Positions 4,382-64,000 of a stretch of DNA of 64,000 nt are shown piece by piece (the first letter of the stretch is position 1; each line of letters starts with the position of its first letter). This DNA is from Scenedesmus sp. PABB004 (taxonomy: Eukaryota). The notes beneath the pieces were generated by a model. The model searched no databases, was not told the DNA's origin, and was given only the letters and a program-made list of their open reading frames with translations. The stretch is taken from the NCBI GenBank assembly GCA_014905635.1, contig JABVCE010000004.1, positions 1,426,001 to 1,490,000 on the forward strand, written 5' to 3'. The translations under genes were made by a program, and so were the position numbers.

Positions 4382-7300
4382 TCACTGGCCGCCGCCGCCC
4401 TTGCTCGCCGCGGCCTCGGCCTCGAGCTGGGCGTTCAGCGCGGCGTAATCGACCGCCGCGCCGGTGCGCCGCCGCTTGGAGCGCCCGCCCTCCGGCACCG
4501 CCGCCGCACCCGCGCCCGCGTCCGCCTCCGCGCCCGCGCCCGCCGCCGCGCCCGCGCCCGCGCCCGCGGCCGCGTCCGCCGCCTCGCCCGCGCCACCGGC
4601 CTCGCCCGCGGCGGCCGCCTCGGCCGCGGCCGCCTCGGCGGCTGCCTTGTGCCGCGCGAGCGCCGCGGCGCGCTTGGCGGCGAGCTTGGCGGCGCGCTCC
4701 TCGCGCCGCTTGGCCTCCAGCTCGCGCTCTGCGGCGGCGGGTCGGTCGGCGGTGTGCGTTGAAGGGGGGGGGCAGCGTTGGCGGGTGGGTCGGGCGGGCC
4801 CTGTGCCCCGGACCCGGCGCGCGCGCGCGCGCGGCGCCCGCCGCCGCCGCCGCCGCACCGATGCGCGGCTCGGCCGGGTCCCACGCCTGGCTGTGCGGCT
4901 CCGCGAGCCCGCGCACGTGCGCGGCGACGCTGCGCGCAAACGCGCTGACGAGGCCGCCGTTGATGTTGTAGCCGCCCTCGAGCACGCTCACGACGCGCCC
5001 GCCGCACACGCGGTTGGCGACCTGCACGATCTGGTCGGTCAGCCACTCGTAGTCGGCCTCCGTCACGCCGATGTACCTGCAAGGGGGCGCAGGGCGGGGC
5101 GCGCAGGGCGGCAACCGGCCTTGAGGAAAGGCGCAGGCGGGCGGCTGGACGAGAGGGCGCAGGCGTCGCTGGCGCGGCGCGGCGCGGCGCGCGCGCCTGA
5201 AGTTGATTTCGTCCTTGCGGTGCGCGTCAAAGCCGGCGCTGACGAGGATGAGGTCCGGCCGGAAGTTGACCAGTGCCGGCAGCACCTGTGTGTGCCGACC
5301 GCGCGGCGCGGCACGCCCGCGGTCAGCGCGTGCCGCGCAAGCCAGCGCGGCGGCGCGGCGGCGCAGCGGCGGCGCGCGCGCGTGCGCGCGCCTTGTCGCG
5401 CCAGGCGTGGCGCCAGAGTCCCGGGTGGTAGCCGGGGCCGGGGATGCCGACCTCGATCAGCCGCGGGCCCACGAGCGGCGGGTCGTCGGCGGTGGTGGGC
5501 GGGAACTCATTGTCAGGGTCCTCGGGGACCTGCCGGGGGTGCAAGGCGGCGGCGGCGAGGCGGCGGAGGGGGGCTGGTGGGAAGAGGGGGAGTGGGGGGG
5601 GGGGGGACGGCGGTGCCGCAGGGTCCCAGCCCCATCCCGCCCGCGCTCCGCCGCGCGCACCAGCTCGGCCGCGGCGCCGTTGGCCGCCGGCGCGCCGGCC
5701 TCGGCCTTGACGCGCGCGGGCGCGGGCGCCGCGCCGTTGGCGCCGCCCGCCGCGCCCTCCGCGCCGGCGTCCGCCGCCTCGGCCGCGGCGGCGGCCTCGG
5801 CCTTGGCCTGCGCCGCAGCCTTGGCCTCGGCCTCGGCCTTCTCCTGCGCGGCGCGCAGCTGCGCCGTGTCGCACGTCGCGCCCGAGCCGGGGTACACATA
5901 CACATCTGCGGCCGGCCGGGCAGCCGGGCGGGCGGGCGGGCACGCCGGGCCGGCCCGGTGGCGCACGCGTCAGGCGGCGCCGCCGCCAGCGCCCGCGCGC
6001 GCGCGCGCGCGCGCGCACCCGGCATGGCGGCGCTCTTGGGTCCGTAGCCCTGCACGCTCGCGAAGAGCACGTTGTCGTCGTCGTCCACGTCAAACCAGGG
6101 CGCGTAGGTGTTGTACACGTGAACGCCCTCGCTCAGCGGCGTGCTGAACGGCACGCGCAGCGTCCCCGGCGCGGTGTTGGACACGCACGCGCGCGTGCCG
6201 TTGCCGTGGTGCACGTCGAAATCGAGGATCGCGACACGCTGGATGCCCGCGTGCCTGCGCGGCCGCGCGCGGCGGCCGCGGCGGCCCGTCAGAGCGCCGC
6301 CCCCGGCGACGGCCGCGGCGCGGCCGGCGACCGCGAACGCCGCGTCACCGCCGCCGCCGCGCGCGTGCGCAGCGGGTGCGGCGCGCGTGCGCAGCGCGTG
6401 CGCACCGGTGCACGTTCATGGCGTAGGCCGCCGCGATGGCGACGTTGTTGAGCAGGCAGAAGCCGTGGCTGCCGGCGCGGTCCTTGCGGCTGGGCACGAC
6501 GCCGCGCGGGCCCGCGTGGTGCCCCGGCGGGCGCACCGCGCAGAACGCGTTGGCCGCCGCGCCCGACACGACGCGGTCGACCGCGACGCACACCGACGCG
6601 GCGGCGCGCAGCGCGACGTGGAACGTGTGGTGGCTGACCGCGGTGTCGGGGTCGAGGTGCGCGACCGCGTCGGCGCGGTCGGGGATGGCCTGGCACGCGA
6701 GCTGCGCGCGCGGCGCGGCGCGGCGCGGCGCGGCGCGGCGCGGGGAGGGCGGCCGTGGGGCCGTGGCGGGGCGCCGTCGGCGTCAACCCCCTCGCTGAGC
6801 GCCGCGCGGCGCGCGGCGCCGCACCTGCAGGCCGCGCACGTAGTTCCAGTCGTGCACGCGCAGCACGTCGCCGATCGGCGCGGGCGACACGCTCGTCTCC
6901 CACGCGAGCCGGCCGGCGAGGCCGCGCGCCGTGAGCGCGCCGCGCCCCGGGGACACGAGCACACGCAGCCGCTCCACGTTTTCGGGCGGCGGGTGCACGC
7001 CGCGCGGCAGCGGGTCGGGGCAGGTGCGGTGCAGCTCGCACTCCGGCGGCGCGACGATGAGCGTCGGCCGCCGCGCCGCGGGCGGGTCGTTGCCGCCGCC
7101 GTCGGCGGCGCCCGCGGCGGCCGCGGCGGCGGCCGCCGCCGCGCTGTCGCCGCCCGCCGCGGCGGCGGCCGCCGCGCTGCTGAGCAGCGCCGCGAGGCCC
7201 GTGTGCCCGCGGCGCGCCGCGAGGTCGGAGGGCGAGAAGCCCTTGCGGTCCGGCAGCAGCACCGCGCCCGGCACCGCGCGCAGCAGGCGCTGCGCCGACG

Positions 7301-8661
7301 CGGCGCCGCCGTAGAACGCGGCCGTGCCGAGCGGCGTGAGCCCGGCCTTGTTCTTAGCGGCCGCCGCCTCGGCGGCGCTCGGCGTCGCGGGGCCGCCCGC
7401 GAGCAGCAGCTCCAGCACGGCCGCCTGGTCGCAGCGCGCCGCGGCGTGCAGCACGTTGTCGCCGTTGTTGTCCTGCACACGCGTGCGAACGCGCGGCGGT
7501 GAGCGCCCGGGCCCGCCGCCCGCTGCTGCCCGCTGCCCGCTGCCCGCCGCCCGCTCGCTGCTGGCTGCCTGCCTGCCGCCCGCAGCTGCGCCCCCCCCCC
7601 CACACACACACACACCACACCCACACCCACCCACCTGCATCTCCAGCAGGTTGGGCAGCTCCAGCTGCGGCGGCTCCGCGCCCGCCTCGCCGTCGGCGGC
7701 CGCCGCCGCGGCCACGCGCGCGGTGAGCGCCGCGGCCGCCTCGGTGCTCGCCTCCAGCAGCAGCCGGCACACGTCAGTGAGCCCCAGCTCCGCCGACCAG
7801 TGCAGCGCGAGGCGACCGCAGTCGTCCCTGCGCGCGGGCGGGCGGGCTGGCGCTCGCGCACGCGCACGCACGCCCCCGCCGCCGCCCCCGCGGCGCAAAC
7901 CGCCCCCCGCACCGCTGGATCGGGTCGGCGCCGCTGGCGAGCAGCAGCTTGACCAGCTCCAGCGCCACGTCCTCGCGCCCCGGCAGCGCGCCGGTGCATG
8001 CCGCCATGTGCAGCGCGGGGCAGCCGTCGCAGTCGGCCGACGCGCTCGCCTGCGCCGCCAGCAGCAGCCGCGCGCAGCCCGCGTGCCCTGCGTGCAGCGT
8101 GGGAAGCGGCGCGCCTCGCGGCGTGGGCGGCGCCACGCGCCGCAGCGAGCGCGCAGCGCGCCCGCCCGCCCGCCCGCCCGCGGCGCGGACCGTGCAGGAT
8201 CGCGACGTGCAGCGGCGTGCACTCCGCCTGGTCCTTGGCCTGCAGGTACGGGTCGTCGCTGCCGGGCAGCGCGACCGGCGCCTCCTCGCCCTCGGCGCCG
8301 TCCTGCGCGCGCGCGGGCGGCCGTCGGCGGCGCCCGCGGCGCGCGGCGGCGGGGGCGGCGCTGCGCCGCTGCCGCCCCGCGGGGCCCGCCGCACCGTCTC
8401 CATGCGCTGCGCCAGCTGCGCCGCGCGCGCCTCCAGCAGCGCCTTCAGCGCCTCCTCGTCGCCCGCGGCGGCGGCGTCGTGGAAAACGCTGGCGGCGGCG
8501 CGCGTGGCAGCAGCAGCGGCGGCGCGCGTGGGCAGCAGCAGCGGCGCTGCTGCGCGGCGGCGCGCGGCGCCGGGCTGCCCCGCCCCGCGCGCTCACAAGA
8601 GGTCTCCGGGCTCGTCATCGCTGCCGCTGCCGCTGAAGGACGGCCCGGAGTCGCTGTCCAT
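4382..8661 (-). CDS. Ankyrin-repeat, class II-like histone deacetylase
   Basis: Ankyrin repeats TPLHVAILHG, GRLALHW, GDNVLHAAA, GLTPL; HDAC motifs RPPGHHAG, GFCLLNN, DFDVHHGNGT, SAGFDAH, LEGGY. Confidence 0.9.
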
Positions 8662-10661: not shown

Positions 10662-12114
10662 TCAGGGCGCTGTGTAGGGGCGGCTGCGCAGGTAGCACTC
10701 GTTCTTGCGCGCCGCGAGCGCGGGGTCGGACGCGTCGAGCGGCTGCGGCACGACCTCAAACACGCGCGGCCAGTACTTGCCCGTCACAAAGAGGCGCTGG
10801 CGCTGGTGGTCCCACGCGATGCCTGCGGCGCGGCGCGGCGCGGGCGCGGGCTCGGCGGCGGCGGCAGGGGGGGCACGCGCGCCATGCGCGCTGACGCTGC
10901 GCGCGCGTGCGCTGTGCTGGCAAGACCCGCCGCACCGTTGAGCACATCCATGTCAGCGCCGAGGTTGCGGCGCAGCAGGCTGTCGCGCAGGCCCTGCATC
11001 AGCAGCCAGCCCTTGACGCGCCCCGACTCGGGGCAGATGCGCGCGATGCAGTTGGTCTGCCACACGTTGGCCCAGAGCTCGCCGCCGATCATCTCAAGCT
11101 GCGCCGGCGGCGCGGCGCGCGCGGCGCGCGCGTCGGCCGCGCGCGAGCGGCCGCGCAGGGCCGGCGCCGCGCGCCGCCAGCCCGCCAGCGCGCTGGCCAG
11201 CCAGCGCAGCCAGGTCGTGCGCCGCGGCGCGGCGCGGCGCGGCCCCGCCGTGGCAGCAGGGACCAGCGCACCTCGTTGAGGTACTCGACGGTGCGGGTGC
11301 CGTCATTGACGACGACGCGCTTCACCGCGGCAAAGCCCTTGGCCGGGTCGACCCACGTGAGCGTGTCGGAGCCGTCCGACAGCACGAGCAGCTTGTCGTC
11401 GGTCGTGATGCCCCAGCCGTCGCGCAGCGGCGTGCTGAACGTGCCGAGCTGCTTGAGGTCGGGCACGCTGTAGATGAAGCCGGTGTTGGTCTGCCAGGTG
11501 ATCTGGTACAGCCGGTTGCCGAGGCGCGTCGCGCCCTCGCCAAACCACTGGTCGCCCATGCCCGTCTGCTTCAGCACCGCGCCCGTGTCCACGTCCACCA
11601 GCCGCATGTTGCTGTGGCCGTACATGCCTGCGTGCCGGCGCGGCGCCACCGCACAAGCCGGTGAGCTGCGCCGCCGGGCGGCGGTTGGCCCGCGAGCAGC
11701 GGCCGGCGGCAGCGGCGTGCCGGCCGGCGGCCCCCGTGCGGGCGCGCGGCGCGGCGCCGCTGCGCCGCCGCGCTCCCGGCACGCCCCGGGCCCTGGGCGC
11801 GCCTGTGGACTCCCAGAACACCGCGCGGCAGTCCGACTGCGCCCCGGGGGGGCCGCTGCAGAGCGTGTCATACTGCAGACCTGCGGGGCGGCGGGGGCGT
11901 CACGCCGGTGCGCCGGGGCGTGCGGGGAGGCGCCCAGGGGCGCGCCCGCACCCTGCGTGAACGCGCGGGCGTCGTGCGGGTACTCCGCGACCACCTCGTA
12001 GCCGTAGAGCTCCAGCCCGTCGCTCTGGGCGCTGCTGGGGCAGTTCTGGCACGCCACGGCTGCGAACAGGCACGCCACCCAGGCCGCGGGCGCCCAGGCG
12101 CGCCGCGGCCCCAT
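10662..12114 (-). CDS. Plant/bacterial-type glutaminyl-peptide cyclotransferase with signal peptide
   Basis: YPHDARAFTQGL, ESTG, FGEG, GWGIT, LNELE, VLNGIAWD, VTGKYWP. Confidence 0.92.
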
Positions 12115-12397: not shown

Positions 12398-14183
12398 TCA
12401 GTCGACCATGCCGTCGCTCGTCCCGCCGTCGGCACCCTTCTTGACCTTGACCGGCGCCGCCGCTGCCGAGGCCCACACCGAGAGGTCCAGGGCCATTTTC
12501 CACGACATGGCCTCCGACTGCCCGGCCAGCTCCGCCTGCTGGCGCTGCACCAGCGCGTGCGTCGTCTCGTCCATGAGCTGCGCCGAGCGGCGCGAGGGGG
12601 CGCGCGAGGCGGCGTGAGACGGCGGGTGAGGCGGCGTGAGGCGGCCGGTGAGGCGGCGCATGTGAGGTGGCGGGTGAGGCGGCGGGTGAGGCGGCGCGTG
12701 AGGCGTCGCGTGAGGCGGCGCATGTGAGGTGGCGGGTGAGGCGGCGGGTGAGGCGGCGCGTGAGGCGTCGCGTGAGGCGGCGCAGCATTCGGATCGGGCG
12801 CGGCGGCGCGGCGTCGCGCACCATCATGCCTGAGATGTGCCGCTCCGCCTTCTTGCACAGCTGCTCGAGCGCCTGCGGCCGCGGCGCAGCGGCGTGGGCG
12901 GCGGCGTGGGCGGCGGCCCGGCGGCGGCGGCGGCCCGGGGCTCGCTGGGCACAGGACGCTGACAGCGCGCGCACCAGGATGGAGAAGGGCTCCTCAATGC
13001 TCACACCAATCTCCTCGATGCCTTGATTATGCCGGGCGCGGGCGCGGGCAGAGGGCAGAGGCAGAGGGCGGTGAGCGGGCGGCGAGCGGCGGGCGGCGCC
13101 AGCCCCCGCCTGCGGCGCGCCGCGTCGCGCGGGCCGCACCCAGCAGCACGAAGGCAATGAGCGCGGTCATGGGCACGCTGCCCCAGCCGCACAGCCCCCA
13201 CAGCGCCAGCGGCAGCAGCAGCAGCCAGAGGATGAGGAAGCGCGCCGTGTGCCTGCGCGCGGCGCGCGGCACGCGGCGGCGGCGGCGTTCACGTCGGCGC
13301 GCACTTCGCCACCGCGCCCGCACGACCCCCCCCCCCCCCTCCCACCACCACCACCACACACACACACACGTGCGCACCGCGTATAGGAGAGCGGGATGGG
13401 CGTGTTCAGGAGCCGGTCGCACGCGCTCAGCGACTGGCTCAGGCTGCTGAGCCCCTCCTCCAGCCGCACGACCGCAAAGTCCTGCAGCCCGCTGTTGGCG
13501 ACGGCGTGGGAGAGGACCAGGATCGCAAAGTTGGGCGGGTGCGGGCTCGCGACCTGCGACATTGACAGCGTGGCGGGCGCGCGCGCGCGCGGGCGGGCAG
13601 GCGGTGGGTGTGGGCGGCGCGTGGGCGCGCGCCGGCGCCGGGCCGCGCGCGCGGCGCGCCGGCGGCGCACCAGCTGCTTCAGCTCGCGCGGCTCCAGCCA
13701 GGGCCGCAGCTCCTCCTCCAGCGGCTCGTCTTCCCGGATGTACCTGGTGTGCGGAGTGGCGAGGGGAGGAGGGGGAGAGGCAGCTGCTCAACCCCCGCCA
13801 GCTCACGTCGCCCCCTCCCCTTCGCTGCGCGCGCGGCCGCGGCGCACCACTTGCTGCAGCGCACGAACGCGACGAGCCAGCGCGCCATGAGGCCGCGGCA
13901 GGCCACGTTGTCGCGGGGGATGAGTGCCAGCATCTGACGCACAGCGCAGCACGCGCAGCACGGCGGCAGCGCAGCAGGGCAGGCAGCTCGGCGCCGGCTC
14001 GGCGCGCGGCGCGGACGCCGGCCGGGCGCGCGCCGGCGGCGCAGACGGGCGCGGGGCGCGGGGCGCGGGGCGCGGGGCGCGGCGCGCGGCGCGCCTGGCG
14101 GCAGATGTCGCGGCAGGTGGTGGTGATGCGCCCAAAGCTGCGGCGGCCCTCGTTCCAGCGCCCGTAGCTGCGCGTCGTCGTCG

Positions 14184-15366: not shown

Positions 15367-18300
15367 TCAGGCGCCGTCCTCGTCGTCGTCGCTGTCCGGC
15401 TCGGGCTCGGCGTAGATGGCCTTCGGCTGCGTCTTGGCGTACGCCTCGGTGAGCCGGCTGATGGCGTCGTCCTTGCCCTCGTGCCGCAGGATGGCCTCCC
15501 GCGGGTCCATCTCCTCGTCGCCGCCCTTGAGCTTGCCGCGCGTCTTGAGCAGGTGCTGCGTGAGCAGCGTGCCGCCGGTCGCGCCGATGCGCCCCGCGCG
15601 GCCCTTGCCCGCCGTGGCGCCGGGGTCGGGCTTGCGCGACTTGAGCTGGTCCTGCGCGCGTCGGCGCGGCGCGGGCGGCGCGCGGCGGTGGGGCGCGCGC
15701 CGCACGCGCGCGCGGCGCCTCCCCCCTGCCGCGCCTCTCCCCCGCCCCTCCCCGGCGCGTGCGCGCGCGCGCACCAGGCGCTGCTGCTCGCGCTGGCGCT
15801 TGCGGCCGCCGCCCTCGCGCGCGCCAGGGGTGTCAATGACGAGCGCGAGGCCGAGGTCAAAGGGGTTTGCCGCGCGCGGCGCGCGCCCGACCGCGAGCAG
15901 CACGCCGCGCTCGCTGTAGGTCGTGTCATACAGCACGCGCGTCGCGCCGCCGCGCCGGTCGCCTGGCGCGCGGCGGGCGGCGGCGGGCGCACAGGGCGGC
16001 CGGGGAGACGGTCAGCGCGGGGGCCGCGGGCGGGCCGCGCGGCGCGCGCTGTCGCCCCCCGTCTGGCGCTGCAGCCGCCAGCCGCCGCCCGGCAGGCCCC
16101 CCTCCCCAGCCCCCGCGCGCGCTCACCGACGCCCGCGAAGATCTGGTTGAGCCGCGAGTGCCAGCGCAGCGCGGTCACGTGCGACGGCATGCCCACGCGC
16201 CGCACCTCGGCCAGCGTCTGCGTGTCGACAAACAGCACCGCGCCGCCGCCATCGCCGCCGCCGCCGCCGCTGCCGTCGCCGCCGCGGCCGCCGGGCGCGC
16301 CCGTGCCGGTGAGCAGCAGGCGCTCGTCGGGGCTGAACACGGCGTTTGTGGTGGGGTAGTGCGTCGCGAGGCCGCCCCACACGCCGAGCGGGGCCTTGAA
16401 CGCGCGCAGGTCCCACAGCCGCAGCGTGCCGTCCATGCCGCGCGACGCGAGCAGGCGGTCGTCCTGCGCCGCGCGCGCGCGGGCGCGGCGACGCCGTCGT
16501 GCGCGGCAACGCCGTTGGGCGCAGGGCAGAGCGCGCGCGCGCTGCGAGCGGCGGCGCCGCCGCGCGGCGCGGGCGCGGCGCCCCCGGCCGCGCCGCACGC
16601 CGCGCCCCGGCCGCGCACCTGGCTGAACGCGAGGGAGGTGATCTCCTGCTGCGGCGCGTGCGCGCCGCGCAGCACCTGGTTGGGCCGCGAGGCGTAGGTC
16701 CAGCCCTGCTTCTCTATCATCTGCGCGCTCGGCGGCGCGACCACGCCCACCGCGGCCGACGTGCCAAACTTGCCGCCGACGCCCCACACCTGCGCGCCGG
16801 CGGCGGCGGCGGCGGCGTGGGCGGTCGGACGGGAGGCCCCGCGCCTCGAGCCGCGCTGCCCGCACTGCCCGCCGCGCTTCCCGCCGCGCCACGCGTCCCG
16901 CCGCGCCGCGCGCCGCGCGGTCCCCCCGCCGCCGCGCCTGCAGGCCGCCGTCGATCATGCCCGCGGCGAGCAGCTTGCCGTTGCTGTTGTACGCGCACGC
17001 CGTGACGCCGACGCGTGCGGCGCTCGGGTTTGACGGCCGCACGACGGTCTTCTGCAGCACGTTGTGGGCGTCCCAGATGCGCACGGTGCCGTCCTCGGAG
17101 CAGCTCGCCGCGGTGTAGCGGTCGGTCGGGTGCCACGTGCCGCCGGTGCACGCAGTGACGTGGCCCTTGGTGTTCCTCATGTCACGGATGTACATGTCAC
17201 CCCGCACGCACTCGCCCAGCAGCTTGCCGTCCCTGGGCGGGAGCGCGGCGGCGCGGCGGGGGCGCGGGTGGGCGGGCTGCAGGGCAGGGCGGGCTGCGGG
17301 GGCGGGGCGGGCTGCGGGGGCGGGGCGGGCTGCGGGGGCGGGGCGGGCTGCGGGGGCGGGGCGGGCGGCGGGCTGCGGCGCGGGGGGCCCGGACCGCAGC
17401 GCAGGCGGACCTGTCGTAGAAGCGCGGCTGCGCGCTGCCCGTGACGCAGAGGAAGGCGTCGCCGCTGGGGCTCCAGCTCACCGCGAGCACGGGGTGCCCG
17501 TCCGAGGGCGTGATCTCCCTGCGCGGCGCGGCGCGGCGCGGCGCCGTGAGCGCCGCCGCGCCGGCCCTGCCCCGCGCCGAGCCGCACCGCGCCTGCCTCC
17601 GGCCGCTGCACCGGCGTGCGGCCCCATCCCCGCGGCGCGGCGCGGCGCGCCGCGCGGCGCGCCTGAAGCTGCGCAGGTCTGACTTCATGCCGTTGAAGTC
17701 AAAGATGCGCAGCGTGTAGTCGAGGCTGCCGCTCAGCAGGCGGCTGCCGCTGTGCTCGACGTCCAGGCACGTCACAGCGCGGCCGTGGCCCTGCAGGCAC
17801 ACCTCGTGCCCGATCGGCAGGCCGTAGATGTCCACCTCCTGCCCCGCGCAGCCGTCGTCGTCAGAGTCGGAGTCAGAGTCCGAGTCCGAGTCGGAGCCGG
17901 CTGGCGACAGGGGCGCGCACGTGCGGAGGCGCGCTTGGTCGGGCAGGGCGCGCGGCTGCTGCAGCGTGCGTGCGGCGAGCGCGCGGCGAGACTGCGCGCC
18001 CGCTGCGGCGCCCGCCCCACCTGGCGGCCGCGGCGGGCCGACAAGGTCGCCGTCGCTGCCGCCCCGCGGCGGCCGCGGCGGGCCCTCCGCGCCGCCGCGC
18101 TCGCCGTCGCCGTCGTCGCTGCCCGGCGGCCGCGGCGGGCCGGCGGCGCCGTCCGCGTCGCCGTCGCCGCGCGGCGGCTGCTCGCTGATCAGGTCTTCCA
18201 CGGTCATCCAGCCGCCGCCCGCCGGCCGCGGCGGGCCGACGCCCGGCTGCTGCTGCTGCTGCTCCTGCTGCTGCTGCTGCTGCTCCTGCTCCTGCCCCTG

Positions 18301-25013: not shown

Positions 25014-25693
25014 CGCCGCGCTGCTCGGCCGCGCGGCCCGCCGGCGCGTGGCGGCGCCGGGCTTGTCGCCGCCGTCCGGCGGCGAGCGCGCCACGCTCGC
25101 CGCGAGCTGCATGCGTAGCCGCTCCGCGGCGACGTCGAGCGCCTCCAGCGTGGCGAGCAGCTTGCCCTGGTCCTGGCCGCGGGGGCAGGGCCAGGTCCCA
25201 CCGGCGGCGGGGCCCACTGGCGGCGGGGCCCCGCCGCCCGAGGGCGGCTGGCCGGCCGCGGCGCCGCCGTCGTCCTTGAGCTGCCGCGCCGCGTCCGCCC
25301 AGCACTCCTGCAGCGCGGCGCGCACGGGGCTGGCCCGGCCGCGCAGCAGGTGCTGCACGCCCGCGGGGCTCTGCGGCCGCACGGCTGCGCGGGCGGTGCG
25401 GCGCGGGGGTGAGCGGCGGCGCCAGCTGGCTACAGCAGCGCGGCGCGCCGCGCGCCGCACTCACCACAGCACATCCCGCACGTCGGCTGCGCGCCGGGCT
25501 CGGCTGAGTGGCGCCCGCCGGTGGACGGCTGCGCCTGGCTCGCCTGGCCCCCCGCGCTCAAGCTGGGATGCAGCTGCATCTTTGTGCCGAGCGGCAGACC
25601 CGGCACGCACACCTCCCGCGCCGCCAGGCGGGCGTAGGCGTGCCACGCCTCCGCGAAGCTGCCGGGCTCCAGCAGTGCTGGCGTGGGTGACAT
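24936..25693 (-). CDS. Hypothetical protein; exon structure uncertain
   Basis: Coding-like segments GSFAEAWHAYARLAARE, VRAALQECW, LLATLEALDVAAERLRMQL; GTGAG donor near 25464. Confidence 0.4.
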
Positions 25694-28774: not shown

Positions 28775-28999
28775 CACGTGCGGGCTCCGAGCGCCGGCAC
28801 GGGCGCGTCACGAGCTGCCCGCGCCAGCCAGCCCTTTGCGCCCAGTCAGGGGGCTCCAACAGCAGCAGCCGCCCCCGCCCCGCCGACGCCCCCGCGCCAG
28901 CCAGCCCGCCCGGCAGCGACGGCGCTGCCGCCCAACCTCAGCCCCCCGCCACGCCCTGCCAGTCCAGTCAGGCCCGCCTCAGCCGCGGCCTGGCGCGGC

Positions 29000-47700: not shown

Positions 47701-49325
47701 GGGCTGTGGCTCGGCTTCCACTCCACGTCGATGCCTGCGCGGCGGCGGCCGCCGCGGGCGGTGGCGCGCTCGCGCCAGCCGGGGCGCCGCAGCGGGAGCA
47801 GCAGGCGGGTGCGGCGGGTGCGGCAGGTGCGGCGGCGGCAGCGCACCGAGCACGTCGCTGCCGGCCAGCAGCGCGCGCGCGGCGTCCAGCTGCTCCGGCC
47901 GCTCCACAAAGAGCACCGCGTCATCGCCGACCGGCAGCTGCAGGTACGCCTCGCGCCGCGCCGCCTCCTGCGCCGCGAGCTGCTGCGGGTCCAGCGCGAG
48001 CACGTCTGGCGGCAGGCCCAGCTGCCCCGCGAAGTCCCGCGCGAGCGCCAGCTCGCCCGCCTCTGCCATGTCACGCACGAGCTGCGTCTGTGGGTGTGGC
48101 GGCGGCGGCGGCCGCGCGCGGGCGGGCGGGTGGGTGCGCGCGCGCCGGCCGCCGGGCGCCGGCCGCCGCGGCGCCGGCTGCCGCCGCCGCACCTGCAGCG
48201 CGGCGTCGGCGCCGACGAAGCTGAGCGCGACGGGCCAGAGGCGCTTGCCGACGAGGCGCGCGAGGCTGCGCTGGCGGTAGAGCGCCTCTATGTTGGGGAA
48301 CTCCTCACGCAGCCCCAGCGCCCGCACGGCGCGCGCCGCGGGCTTCAGGCGGTCCAGCGCGATGCACGCCTCCACAAACGTCACCTGGCGTGCGCCCGCG
48401 CCGGCGGCGGCGGCGGCGGCGGCGCGGGTGAGGGGCCGGGCGGCCGCGGGCGCGCGCGGTCGGTGGAGCAGCCCAGGGCTGCTGCCGCTGCCCCTGCCCC
48501 GGCCCCTGCCCCTGCCCCTGCTCTTGCCCCCGGCGCGCGCGCGCGCGCCTGGTCGTCGCGGCCGAGCGTGGCCGCCCACTGCTGCGCGAGGAGCTCTTGG
48601 CCGTCGGCGACGAGCTGCGAGAGGGTCTCGGCCTTGTTCACCGCCTCGTCGAGGCCATCAAAGGTCATCATGATGTGCACAGCGGCCTTGTAGCTCGTCG
48701 CGCTCGCGAGCAGGCCTCCGAGCGCGGCGACGACGCCGCCCCAGTCGGCGAGCTCGGCGCGCGTGAGCCGGAAGGTCAGCGCGGTCTTGGCGGCGAGCTT
48801 AGCGTCGCAGGGGTTGAGCCAGGCCTCAAACAGCGCCGCCGCCGCGGCGCGCACGTCCGGCGGCGCCGCGGCCGCGGCCGCGGGCGGCAGCGCCTCCAGC
48901 ACCAGGTGCGGCAGGCCGGGCGAGAAGGCATCGCGCCCCGCGCGCTGCGCTTCGCCAAGGCAGCGCAGCAAGAAGCGCAGCGAGGCGTCCGCGTCCCCCC
49001 CTGACGCGGCGGCAGCGGCAGGCCACGGCCGTGGGGTCGGGCGGGCGCCGCCGGCGCAGCAGCAACCGCAAGCTGGCCGCCGAGCAGCAGCAGCAGCAGC
49101 AGCAGCAGCAGGCCACGGCCGGGGGGTCGGGCGAGCGGCGCCGCCGCAGCGACTGAAAGCCGCCGAGCAGCAGCAGCGCACCTCGCCGAACGCCGCCGCC
49201 CGCAGTTCCGTCAGGAGATCGCGGAAGTTGCGCTCCCGCAGCTCCTCGTCCAGGGCTGCCAGCAGGGCGGCGGGCTGCGCCGCGGCCAGCGCGGCGCGCC
49301 ACGCGGCGCCGCCATCACCGGCCAT
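44753..49325 (-). CDS. EXD3: EXD3/Mut-7-like 3'-5' exonuclease with internal YbaK-like domain and C-terminal Mut7-C domain
   Basis: GIDVEWKP, LQLAT, LKLGF..GDL, SDWASRPLS..QLHYAALDA; FLVDSMLGRLCRWLR, FLTRD, RCAACN, CGGCGKVFW. Confidence 0.9.
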
Positions 49326-53272: not shown

Positions 53273-56200
53273 TCACTCGCGCGCGGGCGCGCCGCCGCGC
53301 CGCACCGGCACCAGCTCGCGCCGGGGCAGCAGCAGCGCGGCGCCGCGGCCCGGCGAGTCGGCGGCGCCGGGCGCGTTGACCCAGCCGCGGCACGCCGCCG
53401 CGCCGCAGTTGCAGCGCAGCTTCTCGTCGCCCGCGAAGCGATAGTCGTACGTCAGCTCCTCCCCTGGCCCCGACGCGGCGGCGGCGGCGATGCGGCGCGC
53501 GCGCCGTCAGCGCGCGGGCGCGGGCGGCGCGGGGCGCGGCGCGGCGCGGGCGGCGCGGCGCGGCGCGCACCGGGCGCGATGTCGCGGCTGGCGGCGATGA
53601 CCACGTGGTCGGCCAGCGCCCCGCTGGCGGGGTGCCGCACCGTGATGGTGCGGCTGTGGCAGCACGGCGTGCAGCTGTGGTTGATGAGGTGCGCCACCTT
53701 TTTGTTTGCGAGGGGGGCGGGCGCGCGGGCAGGCGTCAGGAGGCGCGGCGGGCGCACGCGCGGTGCAGCTGTCACGGCGCGCGGCGGGGCGCGGCGCGGC
53801 AGGGGTCCCGATGCTGCCACGCACGCTGCCGGTGCGCGTGGCGTCCACGCAGGTGCTGCCGTTGAGCCTGAAGATGTAGGTGCCTTTGAAGGCAGGGGCG
53901 CGGCGGGGCGGGGCGGCGGCACCGCGCGCCGTCAGCGGAGCGCGAGCTGGACGGGCTGGGCGGGCGGGCGGGCCGCCGCGCACCCGCGCCGACCATCTGG
54001 TTGTACGTACGCGCCTCCAGCAGGTCGGCCACGGCCGGCCGCACCAGGGCGCCCACGTACTCGAGGACAAGGTCGCCTGGCGGCGGCAGGGGCGGGGGGC
54101 GTCGGCGCAGGCGGGCGGCGGGCGCACGAGCCCGACGCGACCGTGCGCCGCAGCCGCACCTGCTCGGTGCGGGACCTTTGCAAACACGCCGAGGCCGTGT
54201 ATGGCCGACTTGCCGCTGCACACGCGCGCGCCGGCGCTCGCGACCATCGCCTCGTACCGGCCCGCCAGGCTCATCAGCCCGCCGCCGCCGCCGAGGCCGG
54301 GTGGGACGGCCGCGCAGCTGCCACCGCCCGGCGCCTGCGCCGCCGCCTGTGCCGCCGCGCCGTCGCCGCTCGGCTGCGGCTGCGGCTGCTGCTGCTGCTG
54401 CTCCGCTGCCGCCAGGGCCGCCGCCGCCGCCGCCGCGTCGGCCTCAAACTCCGGCCCCCCCGTGCGCCCGCGCGGCGCGGGCGGCGGCAGCAGCGCGCCC
54501 GCGCGCGTGCAGCCGGTGACCACGTAGGGCACCGCCTGCACGAACAGCCGCTTGTGCAGCGCCGCCGCGAGCGCGTCGGGCGCGCGCAGGCCGCGCCGCA
54601 GCGCGTTGTCGGCGGGCCGGCTGCGCGCGCAGGTGCCCGCCGGCACGGCCTGGCCGTCCGGCGCGGCGGCGCCGTCCGGCGGCGCCGCGCCGGCGCCGCG
54701 GTGCGGCGACGTCACCTCCTGCCCGCCCGCCGGGGCGCAGCCGCCGCCGCCGCCGCCGCTGCTGCGGCCGGCCGAGGCGGCGGCGCTGGCAGCGCCGCCG
54801 CCGCTGGCGCCGCGGCGGCCGCCCGACAGCGCCGCGGCCGAGGGCGGCGCGCTGGCGGCGCCCTGGAAGATGAGGCTCTCGCGCAGCCCCGCCGCGGCGG
54901 ACGCGTGCTTGGCGCAGAAGCAGAGCAGGCGCGTGTTGTCGCCCGCGGCGGTGCCCTCCTTGCGCTCGCGCCGCGCCCGCCGCCCGCCGCCGCGCCGCGC
55001 CCCGCCGCTGCGCGCGGCCGCCGGGCGCCGCGCCGCGGCGTCGCGGTCGGCGCCGCCGCCGCCGTCGTCCGAGTCGGAGTCCTCGTCGTACACCGCGGCC
55101 ATGGGCAGCCCCGCGTCGCGCGCGCAGGTCGCGTGGAACGCGGCGTAGCACTTGCTGCTGCCCGCGCACTGGATCGCCGCGCCGTGCGCCTGGCGGCAGA
55201 GCCCGCAGCGCAGGCCGCTGCGCGCCTTGATGGCCGCGGCCGCGCCGGTGATCGGCTCCATTCTGTGGGGGCGGGGCGGGGGGCGTGGGCCGGGCGGCGG
55301 GGCTTCAGCAGCCGCGGCGGCTGCCGGGGCCCGGCCCCGGCCCTGCCAGCACGGCGCGGCGCGGCACGGCGGCGCGCCTCACTTGTCCGCGTCCGCGACG
55401 TGCATGCCGGGCACCCACGTCGCGCACAGCAGGTGGCACCAGCCGCCCTCGGCTGTGACCTTCATCGCGCCGCCCAGGCGTGGGCACAGCACGCACGGCG
55501 GCGGCGACGACACGCCCGGCAGCCTGCGGCGGCGGCGTGGCGGCTGAGCCCGCGCCGCGCGGCGCGGCACGCGGCGCCCCGACCGCGCGCGCGCGCGCGC
55601 GCGCGCGCGCGCGCGCAGACCGCCGGGGGTGCGCGCGCCTGCAGACGTCGCAGAGCCAGCTGCTGCCGTCCTGCGTCGTCGCGGGCGCCGCGCCGTAGCA
55701 GCGCGCGTGCACCATGACGCGGCAGCGGTCGCACTCGAGCAGGTAGTTCTCATCAGTCTCCAGCTCCTCCCCGCACGCGTCGCACAGCCCCACGACGCGG
55801 CGCTGCAGCGGCAGCGCCGCCACGCCCGGCGGCAGCGCGAGCAGGCGCGTCGCGATCGCGCGCTTCGCGAGCAGCAGCTCCGGCGTCTGCGCGGCGGGGC
55901 GGCGGGCCGGGTCGGCCGTGCGCGCGCGCGCAGCGGTGGCCTGGTGGCCGCGCCGGCGGCCGCGGCCGCTCACCCAGCTCCACGGCGGCCGCTCGCCCTG
56001 CCACGCCACAAAGCGCTCGCACGCGCCCGCGCTGGGCAGCGCTTGGATGAGCGCCTGCACCGCGGGGTGTTGCAGCCCGTACAGCCGCGCGCCGCACGTG
56101 CTCGCAGCGCGCACGGCGCTCGCCGCGCTGCCCGCGCCGCCCGCGCCGGCGCCGCCGCCGCCCATGACCGCCGCCCAGGCGGCGTCGGCGCTCTCTGCGC

Positions 56201-57520: not shown

Positions 57521-60204
57521 TCAGCGCCGCACTCGCTGCTGGCGCCCTGGTCCTGGACCACCACGTCGGTGGCGCCCGCGCCCGCGGCAAGCTGCGGCTG
57601 CTTCGCCAGCGCGAGCTTGACAGGGCTCAGCCGCGGTACGGGCCGGCCGCCGCCGCTGCCCGGCTGCTGCAGCTCCTGCAGCACGCTGCCGCCGCCGCCG
57701 CCGCTGCCGCTGGAGCTGCGCCGCGCCGCGCACGACTCGTCCACGGGGATGGAGCCGGCGCGCGGCGCGGCCTGGCCGCCCGCGGCGGCCCCGGCGTCCC
57801 CGGCGTGCGCCGCCTTGGCCCGCTTGGGGTCGGCGGCGCGCGGGCTGCCCGGCGAGCATGCCGGCCGCTTGCCACGGTCTCCAGGCTGCTGCTCCTGCGG
57901 CTGCTCCTGCTGCTGCTCCTGCTGCTGCTCCTGCGGCTGCTCCGCACGGCCGGGCATCGCCGGGCCTGCGTCGCTGGGCGGCTGCTGCTTGCGCTGCCTG
58001 CTGCCCTTGCTGCCTGGGCGTTGCGCCGCCTGGCCTGCCGCCGGCCTGACGTGTCTCGGCACCCAGACCTCCGGCACCGCCCCGCTGCGCTTCAGGTGCG
58101 CTGCGCCCAGCAGCGCCAGCGCCTTGCTCCGCAGGCGCTCCACCGTCTTCACCTCCTCCTGCGCTCGCGGTGGAGCCGTGCGTGCGCACGCGCGCGTGCG
58201 TGTGCGTGAGCTGCCGCCGCCCGTCGGCCCGGCGGCCCGCGGCGGGGGCCCGGCGCGGGCACGACGCCCCCCGCGGCGCGCACCTCTGCCTCGTCGTCGT
58301 CGCTGCCGTCGGGCGCCTGGCGCCCCGCCAGGCCTGCCTCGAGGCGCGCCGCCGCGACTGCGTACGTTGCCGCCAGCGCCTCCAGCGCGTCCGCGCCGGG
58401 CGCCGGCAGGGCCTCGCCCGGCGTGAAGCAGAGGCGCACGCGCTCCGCGCCCATCCACACGCTGCCGCTCGTGCCGTCCTCGTACGCGACCTGGCGGCAG
58501 GGGGCGCGGCGGCGGGCGGCGGTCGGCGGTCGGCGGCGCACGCCAGCGGCCGCGTGGCACGCGCGCGGCGCGCGGCGCGCAGCGCGGCGCCGCCGCGCCT
58601 GGTGCTGCCCCGTGGCGGCGTCCCATGCCTCCACGCTGCCCAGGAACCAGGCGTCGTCGAGCTCCCAAAACACCCGCACCGCGCGGCCGACCAGCGCCTC
58701 GGGGCACACGCGCAGCGCGACGTCCATCCTGGCGCGGCGCGGCGCGGAGCGGCGCGTGTGCGTGCGCGCGCGGGCGCGTGCCGCCGGGGCCGGCGGCGGC
58801 CGCGCCGCGAGGCCACGCGCACGTGCGCGCTGTGCGCTCACTCCTTGGTGATGAGCTGGTGCGACAGCTTGTTTGCCTCGTGGTCCGCGAGCGCGTCCGC
58901 CAGGTCCTGCTCGAGGCAGAGCAGGTCGCTGCCGCGCCCGCTGTGCTGCGCGTCGCGCGTCGCGTCCAGGCGGCGCTGCGCCTCGGCCGCCGTCATGCGC
59001 GCGGCCGCGGCGGCCGGCGGCCTGACCCACTCCTGCGCGCGGGGCGGCGGCGGCGGCGGCGGCGGCGTGTGGGCGGGCGCCCGTCCCGGTGCGCCGGCAG
59101 GCCGCGGCCGCCCGCGGCCGCCCGCGGCGCACCACGTGCGTGTGGCCGAGGCCGGGCACGTTGGCAGGGTGGACCGCGCCGCCCCCCAGCAGCAGCTGCG
59201 CGGCGGTCTCGCCGTCCGGCAGCGCGCCGGCCGCGGCGCCCGCGCCCGGCCGCTCCTCCTCCCCCTCGCCCGCCGCGGGCCCAGCCGCCGCCGGCGCCGC
59301 GGGCTCGGCCGCCGCCTCAGCCGCCTGGGTGTCTGCGAGGTCCAGCAGCTCCTGCGCCTGCGCGCGCTTGGTCTCGGCTGCGCGGCGGGCGCAGCGCAGC
59401 AGTGCGGCGGGTGAGCGTGGGCGTGCCGCCAGAGCAGGCGCGCGCGCGCCCGCCGCCGCCGCCGCCGCCAACGCTGACGCGGCGCCCCTCGCGCCTGCTT
59501 TGAGGTGCAGCCGGCGCGCCGACGGGCCCTTGGCGGCGCCCGCGGCGGCGTCCTGCTCCGCCGCGAGCTGCAGCAGCTGCTCCGCGAGCTGCGTGAGCTG
59601 CGCCGCGCTCGGCAGCGGCAGCGCCTCGCCGGCGGCCAGCTGAACCTTCACCGCCACGTCCAGGCCCACCACCAGCTCCTCCTCGTCGCCATCATCATAC
59701 TCAATCTGCGCCGCGCGGCGCGCCGACGGCGGCGGTCGCGGTCGCGGCAGCTGACGACGCGGTGCGGCGCACGCCGCGCGCGGCGGCGCTGCCCGTCGTG
59801 CGCAGCGCTCGCCTTGTGCTTCAGCGTCACCGCGTCGAAGCCCCGCACGGTGCCCGCGAACCAGCCCGCGGGGTCGTCCCACTTGACCGATACGCGCCGG
59901 CCAAGCAGGAAGCGCGGCTCGACCGGGTGCGTCGCTTGCACGCTGCGGCCGTGCGCAGCGCCGCCGGCGGCCGTCGCTGACCGGAGGCGCGGCCAGGCAT
60001 GCGACCGGCGCGCGCTGGCGCCGCGGCGCGGCAGAGCGCCCAAGCTGGCGCGCGAGCAGCAGCAGCGCACCTGCCGCCCTTGCCGCCGCCGCGCTTCGCC
60101 GCCGGCCCGCCGTCGCGCTCCGCCTTGCGCTTGAGCAGCGGCACGCCGACGACCCCGCCCTCCCCCAGCGGCGGCAGGGCCGCGCCCGCGCCGGCGCGGG
60201 CCAT
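53273..60204 (-). CDS. Trithorax/ATX-like H3K4 methyltransferase (Tudor-like x2, PWWP, FYRN/FYRC, PHD, ePHD, SET, post-SET)
   Basis: PPWPA, IWPVGF, CDAC..HARCYG..WLCDVC, WCHLLCA, KSAIHGLGVF, INHSC, ELTYDY, CNCG..CRG. Confidence 0.92.
57441..57518. repeat. (GCGCGG)13 hexamer repeat inside the ATX-like gene
   Basis: Perfect tandem run. Confidence 0.9.
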
Positions 60205-60456: not shown

Positions 60457-62927
60457 TCACAGCCCCGCGACGAGCCCCGCCGGCCCCGGGCTGGTCGACG
60501 TGAGCAGCGGCCGGAAGCCGAGCTGCTCCGCGGGGATGCCAAACTCGGCGAGCTTGGCCTCGTAGACGCGGATGAGGTCGTTGTGCGCCTTGCTCACCTT
60601 GGCCACGTCGTACTGCAGCGCGCGGATGGTGGCGTTCTTGCCCGTGAGCACCTCCTCCAGCTTGCGGTTGACCTGCGCGCGCGCGGCGGAGCGGTCTGCC
60701 GCGCCGCCCGGCGCGCGCGGCGCGGCCCAGCCGCGCGGGGCGCGCCGGCCGCGGCAGACGCGCGTGGGCCGCGCCCAGCCGCGGCGCAGCGCCCCGGGCG
60801 CGCGCGCGCCTGCTGCAGCGTCGCGGGGTCGAGGTGCGCCGCCGCGAGCACCTCGCCGAGCTGCGCGTCCTTCATCTCCAGCGCCTCGGCCAGCACCTCC
60901 ACGCGCTTCTCCAGCAGCATGCTCTTCAGGCCTGCCGGCGCGGCGGGCGCGGGGGCGCGGGCTGGCGCTGAGCCGGAGGCCAGCGGCCCGCGCGCGGCGC
61001 GGGCGGCGGCCGCCGCGGGCGCGCGCCCACCCGTCTTCTGGGCCACGTCGTGCACGCTGGCCTCAAACTTGTCGTACAGCGCGTCGCGCTCCGACTGTGC
61101 CGCCGCGAAGCGCTGCGCCAGCACCTCCGCCTCCCACTCCAGGTTTTTGATCTGCGCGGCGCCGCGGCGCTCCGGCCACCTGCCAGGCTGGCGCCGCGCC
61201 GCCGGCGCGCCGCGCACCTGCTTCTCCGCCGCCGCGAGCCGCGCCTTGGCCGCCGCGAGGCTCGCCTTGTCCTTGTCGGCCGAGGCCAGCGCGGCGCGCA
61301 GGCCCTCCACCTCCTTGAGCGCCCGCGCGAGCGGCTCGCTCAGGCGCTTGTTCTCGGCGGCGATCTCGTACCTGCGTGCGGCGGCGGCGGCGGCCCGCCC
61401 GCCGCGCCGTGAGCGCCGCCCAACGCCCGTGCCTGCGCACCCCCCCCCCCCCCCCCACACACACAGGGCGCGCAGCACGCATGGCGCGCACGGCACGCGC
61501 GCACGGCACGCGCGGGCCGGGGCGCACATGAGCTTCTCGTTCTGCGCCTCGCGCTTCTTCATCTCCGCCACGTCCGCCTTGAGCGCGGCGATGAGGTCCA
61601 GGTTGTTGTGCGTGATGTCGTTGTAGTACGCCTTGATCTCGCCAAACGAGCGCTCGTGCTTGCGCATGAGCTCGTTGATGTGCGTGTTCTGGCGGGAGCG
61701 GGAGGTGCGCGTCGCCGCGCGCCGCGCGCGCCGCCGCGCGCCCGAGCGCCGCGCCGTGTGCTGCGCGCGTCGCGCGGCGCCGCTGCGCACCTTGCGCTCC
61801 TCGATTTCGTGGACCTCCTGCTTGCGCCGCAGCTCGAGGTCGTCGCGCAGCATCTTCATCTTGCGCTCGCTCTTGACGCCGAGCTCGCGTGCGGCGAGCT
61901 CAAACTCCTGCCGCAGCTTGGTCAGCTCCTTGGCCTGCTCCAGCTTGAGCGCGCGCAGCATCTCCGCGTGCGCCAGCTCCTGCGCGCGTGCGCGCGTGCG
62001 CGGGGCGCGCGCAGCCGCTGGCGTGGGCCGCAGCCGCCGCGGGCCGTGCCCGCCGCAGCCGGCTGCCGCCGCCGGGTCCGGTCCGCGCCGGCGCCGCTGC
62101 GTTCGCGCCGCGCCTGCTCCTTGAGCTCCTGCTTGAGCGCGCGCTTGTCGCGGTTGAGCTCCGCCTCGCGCCGGCTGAACTCGTCCTGCTGCAGCTTCAG
62201 CGACAGCCCCCCGTCCGCCTTGAGCGTGGTGATGTTGTTCTGCTGCTCGTACAGCAGGTGCTTCACCTTCTGCTGGTAGATCTGCGGCGCACGCGGCAGC
62301 GCGGCGCCGCGGTCGGCCGCGCAGCGAGCGGCCAGCCGCGCCAGGGCAGCTGGGCGCCGCCGCCACCCGCGGCACGGGCGCCCGCCGGTCGCGTGCGCTC
62401 TGCCGCCCCGACCGCCGCTGCACCTTGAGCTCGCGCTGGTGCATGTCCTCGCTCTCCTCCATCTGGCGGTCCTGGTTGCGCATCTCGGCCTTGCGGTCCT
62501 CCAGGTCCTTCTTGGTGATCTCCCAGAACGCGTTGATCTTGTCCTGCGGGCCGCATGGTTCGCGCGCGTGAGCGCGCCGCGCCGCGCCGCGCGCGCGCCG
62601 CCTGCGTGCGTGCGCGTGCCGCCAGTCGCGCCGCGCCGCGCGCGGAGCTGGCGGCCCACCCGCTCGAGCTGCATGTAGTTGCGGTACTCCTCCTCCTTGG
62701 TGTTCTCTCGCTCGAGCGTCTGGATCTTCTGGTGCAGCTCCTCGATGCTCGCCGCCTCGACGTCGGCTGGCGCCGGCGCTGCATCCTTCTTCTTCTCCTT
62801 GGCGTCCTGCGGCGGGGTCACAGGGCGCGGGGTCACAGGGCGCCTGAGGCCACACACGGCCCTGCCACGCGCCGCGGTCCCTGCAGCGGCGCACCTTGGG
62901 CTTGGCGGCCTTCTTCTTCGGCGCCAT
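60457..62927 (-). CDS. DRC4: Dynein regulatory complex subunit 4 (GAS8/PF2)
   Basis: [67 protein letters not shown]. Confidence 0.95.
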
Positions 62928-63512
62928 TGCCGCTGCTGCTGGCGCGCGCGCCGCCGCGGCCGCGCCTGCGGCACCGGGCGCTGCTGGCCGGCCCGGCCGA
63001 GCCTGCCGCAAGCGCCGAGCTGCGAGCGAGCGCCCTGGGACGCGGGAGCGTGGAGCGGCGAAGACAAGGCGCGCTGCTGCTTGACCGAGCTCGCCCGCGG
63101 CGAGGGACCCACGAGCGTGGCTGGGCTTACGTCGAGAGGTGTCTCGCGTGCTCTTGGCTGACGAAAACAGCAGGAGCAGCTGCGCGGGGGCGTGACGACG
63201 CACGCTGGGCAGCTGAGCGGCCGGCGGCTGAGCGGCTCGCTCGGCGGCGCCCGCCGCGGAGAGATCAGGTTGCACACTCGCTCTCAGCCTGCTGCGCGTC
63301 TGCACGCGCCGCCCCCGCCCCCCGCCGGCCTCCCACGCGGCACGCTGCCTACGCCGACCACCGCGCGCGCGCGCCGCCGCCGCCGCCGCGCCGCGCGGCC
63401 CCCCGCGCGCCCCGGCGCCGGCGGGCAGCGCCGCGCGCCGTCAACGCACGATACAGAGGGTGCTGGCCCTGCAGCAGGCCCCTGGGCGTCCTAGAAGGCC
63501 CCCGGGGGCCTC

Positions 63513-64000
63513 CTAGTAGACCTCCACATGCCAAAGACCCTTGTGCTTCAAGCCCTCCACAAACTCCTCGAAGTTGAGGCCCTTTGCCTCAGCAACGCCC
63601 TTGAGCATGTCCAGGATGCCGGGCATCATGCCCTTGAGGCCGCAGAAGTACATGTGCGCGCCGTTGTCGAGCAGGTCAAACACCTCGTCGGCGTACTCCT
63701 CGACCTGCGCGGCGCGCGACAGGCACGCGGCGGCGAGAGAGACGCGGCGGCGAGAGAGACGCGGCGGGCGGCGGGCGGCGCGCGGGCTGGGCGGGCGCGT
63801 GCGCTGGGGCGCGCGGGCGCGGGCGGGCGGCGCGCGCCGCCGCCGCCGCGCCGGGGCGGCCCGCGCGCGGTGCGGCGCCGCGCCCCGCGCCGCGCGCGCG
63901 CCTTGTCCTGGATGTACATCTTGCCGCCGCGCTTGTTCTTGGGCCCCTCGCGGCTGAGCGCGTAGTCGAGGCGGAAGTTCTCGGGGAAGGTCGCGGTGAT
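63513..64000 (-). CDS. FNR: Ferredoxin-NADP+ reductase, 3' part; continues beyond the window
   Basis: [35 protein letters not shown] then stop. Confidence 0.96.

Follow-up and report, generated by a model that had tools for sequence, protein, structure and literature searches.

Within a 64-kb stretch of the genome of the green alga Scenedesmus sp. PABB004 (assembly GCA_014905635.1, contig JABVCE010000004.1, positions 1,426,001 to 1,490,000; hereafter the window), a substantial fraction of introns appear to begin with GC instead of GT. Analysis of the sequence confirmed 26 predicted sites, listed in an initial annotation, as real GC-AG introns, each following an AG at the end of the upstream exon and together amounting to roughly one intron in four to five. 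All 26 listed coordinates read AG/GC on the strand assigned to them (a slash marks the exon–intron boundary throughout), and the full upstream context is (C/A)AG/GC in every case. These are very probably U2-type introns with a GC donor, representing ~20-27% of introns here, produced by an AT-to-GC bias at the second intron base (+2) that is tolerated through pairing of an exonic (C/A)AG with U1 small nuclear RNA (snRNA). The window has a G + C content of 79% overall, ranging from 76 to 82% along its length. The genome is listed as 39.8 Mb with 78.5% G + C and 7,092 genes in a paper that, in the parts covered here, does not mention introns or splice sites (PMC12571836).

Protein homology at the GC-AG junctions

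Homologous proteins, five to six per gene, were aligned to four genes that had been mapped regardless of any claim about their donors. The protein-to-genome aligner uses dynamic programming with codon matches, affine gaps, and introns in three phases; it accepts AG acceptors only, takes a chosen set of donor dinucleotides, and charges a penalty of 8 for GT and 12 for GC. Spurious GC ‘introns’ arose from single homologues in poorly conserved regions, and for this reason only consensus introns, present in at least 80% of homologues, were counted.

All four genes lie on the minus strand and contain GC donors, named here by the coordinate of the donor. RPN5 (37753-40308) has eight introns, all in phase 0, at positions 46, 108, 144, 180, 198, 246, 297, and 420 in P0005 numbering. 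Three of them have GC donors in 5/5 homologues: intron 1 (40075..40167, 93 nucleotides (nt)), intron 2 (39790..39888, 99 nt), and intron 8 (37972..38085, 114 nt, in frame and stop-free). DRC4/GAS8 has eight consensus introns, with GC donors in 5/5 homologues for 61980..62113 (134 nt, gcag/GCGCGGC, frame-shifting) and 60673..60809 (137 nt, gcag/GCGCGCG); for the latter, a GT alternative at 60851 would cost 14 codons. The nine consensus introns of KAS I include two with GC donors in 6/6 homologues, 29291..29474 (184 nt, frame-shifting) and 29078..29197 (120 nt), where read-through would meet a stop. Eight introns are found in at least 5/6 homologues of the ankyrin-HDAC gene, two of them with GC donors in 6/6: 5286..5391 (106 nt, frame-shifting) and 5077..5196 (120 nt), the latter with the Hist_deacetyl profile running from 221-246 and then 250-286 on its flanking exons. 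When the aligner was restricted to GT, the mean score dropped by 75 in RPN5, 289 in DRC4, and 71 in KAS. Any added dinucleotide recovers part of the lost score, since the segments must come out somehow; in all three genes GC recovered more than each of five decoys.

Solved structures lead to the same placement in two further genes. In FNR, the intron at 63705..63901 (minus strand, 197 nt, phase 0, caag/GCGCGCG, frame-shifting) follows an exon ending at 63902 that matches 9kk7_A 218-246 to the last residue, and the match continues at 247-309 from the first residue of the following exon. The same contiguity is found at this junction in other FNR chains of the PDB. In LHCA4, the exon at 36961-37161 matches residues 110-176 of Lhca4 chain 8cmo_4 and the exon from 37327 matches 177-207, leaving the chain contiguous across the exons that flank intron 37162..37326 (plus strand, 165 nt, gcag/GCACGCG). 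Junctions are thus fixed to the residue at 11/26 sites (three in RPN5, two each in DRC4, KAS, and HDAC, and one each in FNR and LHCA4). The initial annotation had proposed that protein conservation points to the GC junctions of FNR, KAS1, RPN5, LHCA4, and DRC4, and both the homologue alignments and the structures agree. From the 11 residue-contiguous junctions, along with 16 frame-shifting intron lengths (see below), we infer that splicing probably takes place at exactly these bases.

Searching with an RPN5 ORF from the window retrieved the RPN5A protein deposited for Scenedesmus sp. PABB004, whose alignment to 40308-37753 on the minus strand scores 2595. This is its self-score (2651) minus seven intron penalties of 8, and therefore a perfect match to the window. 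The deposited model splices the GC-AG junctions at 40167 and 39888. It has 532 amino acids, compared with ~494 in relatives, and reads through the in-frame, stop-free segment 37972-38085, adding 38 residues.

Domain matches adjoin several other GC-AG introns, most of which are frame-shifting. On the minus strand, a PHD match in Pfam stops at the last residue of the exon upstream of 55524..55638 (115 nt, frame-shifting), in a PHD/SET (trithorax-like) gene. In the bestrophin-like gene, the Bestrophin_2 match reaches the last residue of the exon upstream of 13934..14094 (161 nt, frame-shifting). In the glutamine cyclotransferase gene, a Glu_cyclase_2 match begins with the first residue of the exon downstream of 11628..11802 (175 nt, frame-shifting). 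The Ctr match of a copper transporter gene likewise starts at residue 1 of the exon downstream of 28449..28566 (plus strand, 118 nt, frame-shifting). In the WD40 gene (minus strand), WD40 matches are found in both exons flanking 17519..17662 (144 nt, in frame), where they are not boundary-exact; this intron and a second in the same gene, 16790..16937 (148 nt, frame-shifting), were called with confidence by the parser described below.

Coding-potential parsing and a step test

Stop-to-stop open reading frames (ORFs) of at least 150 amino acids occur almost everywhere in the window and in all six frames, making ORF length worthless as a coding signal. A sharp discriminator is the G + C content at codon position 2, which is ~0.40 in exons and ~0.88 in introns. 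In RPN5 exons, G + C at codon positions 1, 2, and 3 is ~0.65, 0.40, and 0.97, and GT and GC introns are both flat at ~0.9. Introns across the whole window have ~89% G + C, with A at 0.056 and T at 0.065.

The window was parsed using codon log-odds, AG acceptors, and a donor-flank model for which GT donors alone served as training data, followed by self-training; predictions were filtered by intron length, flanking-exon score, and antisense shadow. A first pass that left GC donors unpenalised over-predicted them (108 on the plus strand), merged genes over intergenic DNA, and was set aside. The parser recovers 25/25 homology-mapped introns, the same introns that formed its training set. After self-training it places a GC donor at all 26 claimed sites, 21 of which pass the strict filter, and its ‘confident’ introns comprise 76 with GT and 28 with GC. 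Among the latter, five calls lack a preceding AG (22047, 22685, 45490, 34830, and 18083); they have low flank scores and are regarded as doubtful. For 34830, an alternative GT lies 12 nt upstream; two of the five are in-frame segments. Two further calls are new (C/A)AG/GC sites, both on the minus strand. The candidate at 3007..3131 (125 nt, gcag/GCGCGCC, frame-shifting) separates two exons, of which one has methyltransferase matches and the other a match to riboflavin kinase. For that at 25371..25543 (173 nt, ccag/GCGAGCC), which is called without homology support, a same-frame GT was not found within 60 nt.

The parser is also confident at several listed sites outside the homology-mapped genes. 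On the plus strand, a polyketide-cyclase/START-like gene has two frame-shifting GC-AG introns, 41241..41334 (94 nt) and 41653..41803 (151 nt). On the minus strand, confident calls are 59706..59812 (107 nt, caag/GCGAGCG, frame-shifting, from coding potential only, in a gene of no recognized family), 59378..59494 (117 nt, in frame, gcag/GCGCGAG, without homology support), 58491..58598 (108 nt, in frame, ccag/GCGCGGC, from coding potential only), 48385..48548 (164 nt, ccag/GCGCGCG, frame-shifting), and 43645..43771 (127 nt, taag/GCGCGCG, frame-shifting). Two minus-strand sites were not called with confidence. One, 46014..46258 (245 nt, caag/GCGCGCC, frame-shifting), has short flanking exons, and reading through it meets a stop. 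The other, 44386..44454 (69 nt, ccag/GCGAGCG), is in frame with an in-frame stop and is the weakest of the 26.

With the +2 base left free, the parser selected T at 72 donors, C at 29, G at 5, and A at none. By itself, the parser shows that there are ~25-30 introns without a usable GT; it does not fix their first two bases as GC.

A parser-free step test was applied to every occurrence of a given heptamer, counting those in which the 60 nt upstream are coding in some frame and the 60 nt downstream are not. This step was found at 19/74 occurrences of AG/GCGCG and 15/47 of AG/GTGCG, compared with 13/386 for seven one-base decoy heptamers pooled. GCGCG preceded by other dinucleotides gave 29/618 (CG), 7/280 (GG), and 4/57 (TG), or 40/955 for GCGCG without a preceding AG; the corresponding values for GTGCG were 11/58 (CG), 6/33 (GG), and 9/26 (TG). 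Fisher p values for AG/GCGCG were 3-6e-9 against the decoys (6e-9) and against GCGCG without AG. The step test supports C specifically at +2, and supports the ‘only after AG’ rule without any influence of how the sites were first chosen.

Sequence and frequency of GC donors

GC donors share the anatomy of GT donors in this organism apart from two features, the base at +2 and the exonic context. Among 76 confident GT donors, G is found at -1 in 69 and AG upstream in 25. The positions +3, +4, and +5 are G, C, and G in 72, 63, and 75 of them, and in 25, 24, and 26 of the 26 GC donors. The donor consensus is NNG/GTGCG(C), and the GC class has the same motif with C at +2 and an invariant exonic (C/A)AG: -3 is C in 20 and A in 6, and -2 and -1 are A and G without exception. 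The consensus claimed initially, GCGCG with occasional GCGAG or GCACG, corresponds well to the pentamers observed (23, 2, and 1, respectively). The claim that GC donors always follow an exonic AG is borne out by 26/26 sites and by the baseline value of AG-less GCGCG in the step test; in the first three homology-mapped genes, AG precedes 7/7 GC donors vs 6/18 GT donors (p = 0.005). No difference between GC and GT introns was detected in length, G + C content, acceptor score, or pyrimidine content. The paired acceptors are all CAG, of which the AG was imposed by the aligner and the parser. The U12 donor consensus is TATCCTT-like, and donors of GCGCG, GCGAG, or GCACG are unlike it, ruling out the U12 type.

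The frequency of GC-AG introns was estimated in several ways. The homology-consensus introns of the four mapped genes divide into 24 with GT and 9 with GC (9/33, 27%; exact 95% interval 13-46%). The parser gives 28/104, or 23/99 without the five predictions that lack AG. An earlier hand count of 26/~130 had led to the suggestion of about one in five, which these values uphold as roughly one in four to five.

Orthologous introns in relatives

A metagenome scan using RPN5 alignment identified 28 loci, to each of which one RPN5 protein was aligned, and 19 rows were kept, including the window. Locus L007 was left out (alignment score 104), and nine loci were removed by a filter for duplicates and subsets. 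Eight of these are true duplicates or subsets; the other, L001, was removed only as intronless, an empty intron list being a subset of any locus. Some near-duplicates remain in the 19 rows. All eight RPN5 intron positions of the window are shared with green-algal metagenome contigs (loci L003-L028), and further positions conserved in relatives (8, 210, 352, and 387) are not present in the window gene.

Comparison of orthologous positions, which had been suggested as a way of detecting GT-to-GC switches, shows that most other loci have GT at the three RPN5 positions that have GC here. Position 46.0 (intron 40167) is shared with 13 other loci, with GT in 11; position 108.0 (intron 39888) with 14, with GT in 8; and position 420.0 (intron 38085) with 4, with GT in 3. 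The exon end at position 108 is cag in all 14 other loci. GC donors in relatives are mainly at loci with 58-65% G + C. For example, L024, L025, and L028 (63-65% G + C) have candidate GC donors at 2/2, 3/4, and 4/6 conserved RPN5 positions. Loci below 58% G + C all have GT at the three positions, except for one lineage at position 108 (L018/L019, 49% G + C), which has a classical cag/GCAAGT. The share of GC donors is correlated with G + C content (Spearman rho = 0.48, p = 0.04, n=19, for one gene and with some near-duplicate rows). Locus L004 (69% G + C) has GC donors at 0/2. The GTGCG donor consensus is also found in relatives with ~60% G + C.

Origin of the GC donors and alternative explanations

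In pairing between U1 and the 5' splice site, C at +2 loses one pair, and A at -2, G at -1, and C at -3 add one each. The mechanism considered most probable starts from a strong AT-to-GC bias in mutation or fixation, which would turn T at +2 into C. Loss of the +2 pair with U1 snRNA would be tolerable only with pairing at each of -3, -2, and -1, and the switch to GC would as a result be confined to (C/A)AG donors. Even after (C/A)AG, T at +2 would remain partly favoured. We infer both the compensation by U1 pairing and GC pressure as the cause. The initial annotation had proposed that GC pressure converted T to C at +2 wherever an exonic AG compensates. Conversion of T to C is plausible, and the RPN5 orthologues are mostly GT, but ‘wherever’ goes too far: 25/76 GT donors also follow AG, leaving only about half of AG-preceded donors with GC (26/51). 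After (C/A)AG the share is 26/45, with T in the other 19. The neutral expectation at +2 from intron composition (C 0.479, T 0.065) is ~88% C and ~12% T, and the deficit of C relative to this value indicates that T at +2 is still favoured.

Several observations weigh against interpretation of these sites as GC-AG introns arising in this way. Replacing GC with a decoy dinucleotide still yields 13-30 ‘confident’ decoy introns; since the parser cannot fix an exact boundary, reliance is placed on the protein alignments, the step test, and the orthologues. AGGCGCG is not enriched in the window, occurring 74 times on both strands vs 110 +/- 10 expected from a first-order Markov model, under which AGGTGCG occurs 47 times vs 21 +/- 5 expected. 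Eight of the ten in-frame introns are stop-free and, on frame alone, could be insertions rich in Ala, Arg, Pro, and Gly; for the in-frame sites 58598, 59494, 17662, and 44454, the evidence consists of coding potential alone. A same-frame GT lies within 90 nt at 22/26 sites. The ‘always after AG’ rule among the 26 may partly reflect how sites were picked for the initial annotation, and the GC-AG share comes from one 64-kb window. Finally, relatives with 63% G + C have candidate GC donors without AG in single-protein alignments, ccg/GCGCGC at position 210.2 and gcg/GCGCGC at 246.0.

Some of these points would be expected if a sizeable part of the 26 were either low-complexity coding insertions that keep the frame or introns spliced from a GT close by to give a slightly different protein, and the ease with which the parser takes decoy donors fits such an explanation, as do a GT located 15 nt into the 39888 intron and the read-through of the 38085 intron in the deposited model. 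Insertions rich in Ala, Arg, Pro, and Gly would resemble introns in composition, making length the better test. The 26 lengths divide into 10, 9, and 7 with remainders of 0, 1, and 2 on division by three, as expected if one third are in frame (p = 0.68), and the 16 that are not multiples of three cannot be coding insertions. Of the ten in-frame introns, two contain an in-frame stop, and six are pinned by homologues (three in RPN5, KAS 29197, HDAC 5196, and LHCA4). Furthermore, the three RPN5 introns are at conserved positions, with the cag boundary at position 108 common to the other loci. The nearby same-frame GTs all have poorer flanks, mostly with negative scores (real GT donors average 3.2), and their use nearly always lowers the coding score; at 63901, 62113, 59494, and 5196 no same-frame GT was found within 90 nt. 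Overall, an explanation by coding insertions or hidden GT donors is very unlikely. Errors of assembly or polishing that placed C for T at +2, in favour of which no observation was found, are more improbable still, to the point of being barely credible, because they would not be confined to +2 of donors following (C/A)AG and because independent metagenome assemblies likewise have GC donors at the orthologous positions (L021, L023, L024, L025, L028, and L018).

A different type of explanation, suggested in the initial annotation, is that the splicing machinery is itself adapted, through the 5' end of U1, the ACAGAGA box of U6, or U1C, to recognize GC in addition to GT. AG/GCGCG makes few pairs with canonical U1 in the usual pairing scheme, as would suit such an adaptation. 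The homology-based share of 9/33 is also far above that of Chlamydomonas, for which the table covered here lists 532 GC-AG vs 25,053 GT-AG introns, or ~2% (PMC2846911, Table 2). A U1 that reads C at +2 directly would permit GC in any exonic context, and the data argue against it: in the step test AG-less GCGCG does not rise above baseline, and (C/A)AG precedes the donor at each of the 26 sites. The GTGCG consensus, with C at +4, is common to relatives with ~60% G + C, and T is over-represented at +2 after (C/A)AG (19/45 vs ~12% expected). No snRNA gene is present in the 64-kb window according to an Rfam scan, in which no family reached threshold. Adapted machinery is considered unlikely. That (C/A)AG is strictly required points to normal pairing with U1, compensated at the exon end, for which no special U1 is needed. 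A bolder possibility is that an alteration of U1, U6, or a protein acting at the 5' splice site has loosened recognition of +2 to the point where, after (C/A)AG, GC is almost interchangeable with GT, with the genome drifting towards the state of Emiliania huxleyi, in which most donors are GC (see below). This seems rather unlikely. If it were true, stop-free in-frame introns would let retained-intron mRNAs evade nonsense surveillance and encode inserts rich in Ala, Arg, Pro, and Gly. The preferred explanation remains compensation by (C/A)AG under GC pressure.

Gene content of the window

For the gene map, each of the 596 stop-to-stop ORFs in the window with at least 48 amino acids was scanned against Pfam. 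The map includes the ankyrin-HDAC, glutamine cyclotransferase, bestrophin-like, WD40, Ctr transporter, KAS I, LHCA4, and RPN5 genes, together with Mut7-C/exonuclease, patatin, PHD/SET, and DRC4/GAS8 genes and the 3' end of FNR. A single gene at 3945-8973 on the minus strand accounts for both the ankyrin repeats (~6786-8592) and the histone-deacetylase domain (3834-6782), and homologues of 700-1060 amino acids align over both parts. At 2503-4125, also on the minus strand, methyltransferase matches and a full riboflavin-kinase (Flavokinase) match are found within one open frame; the parser joins the two parts via the GC-AG candidate at 3131, and they may represent a fused gene or two neighbouring genes. 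Comparison of the KAS, RPN5, and DRC4 regions (28900-31800, 37650-40400, and 60500-63500) identified best matches in Tetradesmus obliquus with nearby locus tags (OEZ85_010740/OEZ85_010751 and OEZ86_000677/OEZ86_000670), which suggests that this gene neighbourhood is conserved.

Significance and comparison with known systems

A gene finder that bars or penalises GC donors would misplace about one intron in four here, affecting most multi-intron genes. The deposited RPN5A already bears such an error in its 38-residue read-through. Because introns are ~90% G + C, stops are rare and read-through errors give no warning, as the stop-free in-frame introns illustrate. The system also provides a clean natural experiment on donor compensation, with GC found only after (C/A)AG, and at about half of such donors, and GT found in any context. 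Conserved intron positions offer a means of dating GT-to-GC switches across relatives.

High frequencies of GC donors, and their explanation by G + C content, are already known. In the haptophyte Emiliania huxleyi, GC-AG accounts for 56% of 241 curated junctions, ascribed in the part of the account covered here to 65% genomic G + C, and GT-tuned predictors are described as mis-annotating junctions and retaining introns (PMC4028052). The two systems have in common a GC-rich algal genome, abundant GC donors, and an unchanged AG acceptor. The window differs in lineage and degree, with ~20-27% at 79% G + C in a green alga, and in the strict (C/A)AG rule, which does not feature in the Emiliania account as far as it is covered (PMC4028052). 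Among pelagophytes, the portion of a recent report covered here gives predicted GC-AG shares of 14-17% for Aureococcus anophagefferens and 14% for Pelagomonas calceolata, compared with 0.32% in the lower-GC relative Aureoumbra (bioRxiv 10.1101/2024.10.30.620910). The share is comparable to that found here and the same high-GC explanation applies. Pelagophytes are, however, stramenopiles with few introns per gene and shares predicted from annotation, whereas genes here have many introns and 11 junctions are pinned by proteins.

In plants and metazoans, GC-AG introns represent 0.3-2%, as quoted in the same part of that report (bioRxiv 10.1101/2024.10.30.620910). The introns described here share with the U2-type GC-AG introns of plants, animals, and Chlamydomonas the GC at +1 and +2, the AG acceptor, and a stronger flanking consensus. 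They differ in frequency, the Chlamydomonas share being roughly a tenth of that in the window. A literature search at the level of listings and abstracts found no published report that green algae, or the PABB004 genome, have a high proportion of GC-AG introns, and the share here exceeds that of any green alga found in print. The window thereby adds a green alga to the haptophyte and pelagophytes known for this pattern, with a share roughly tenfold that of Chlamydomonas.

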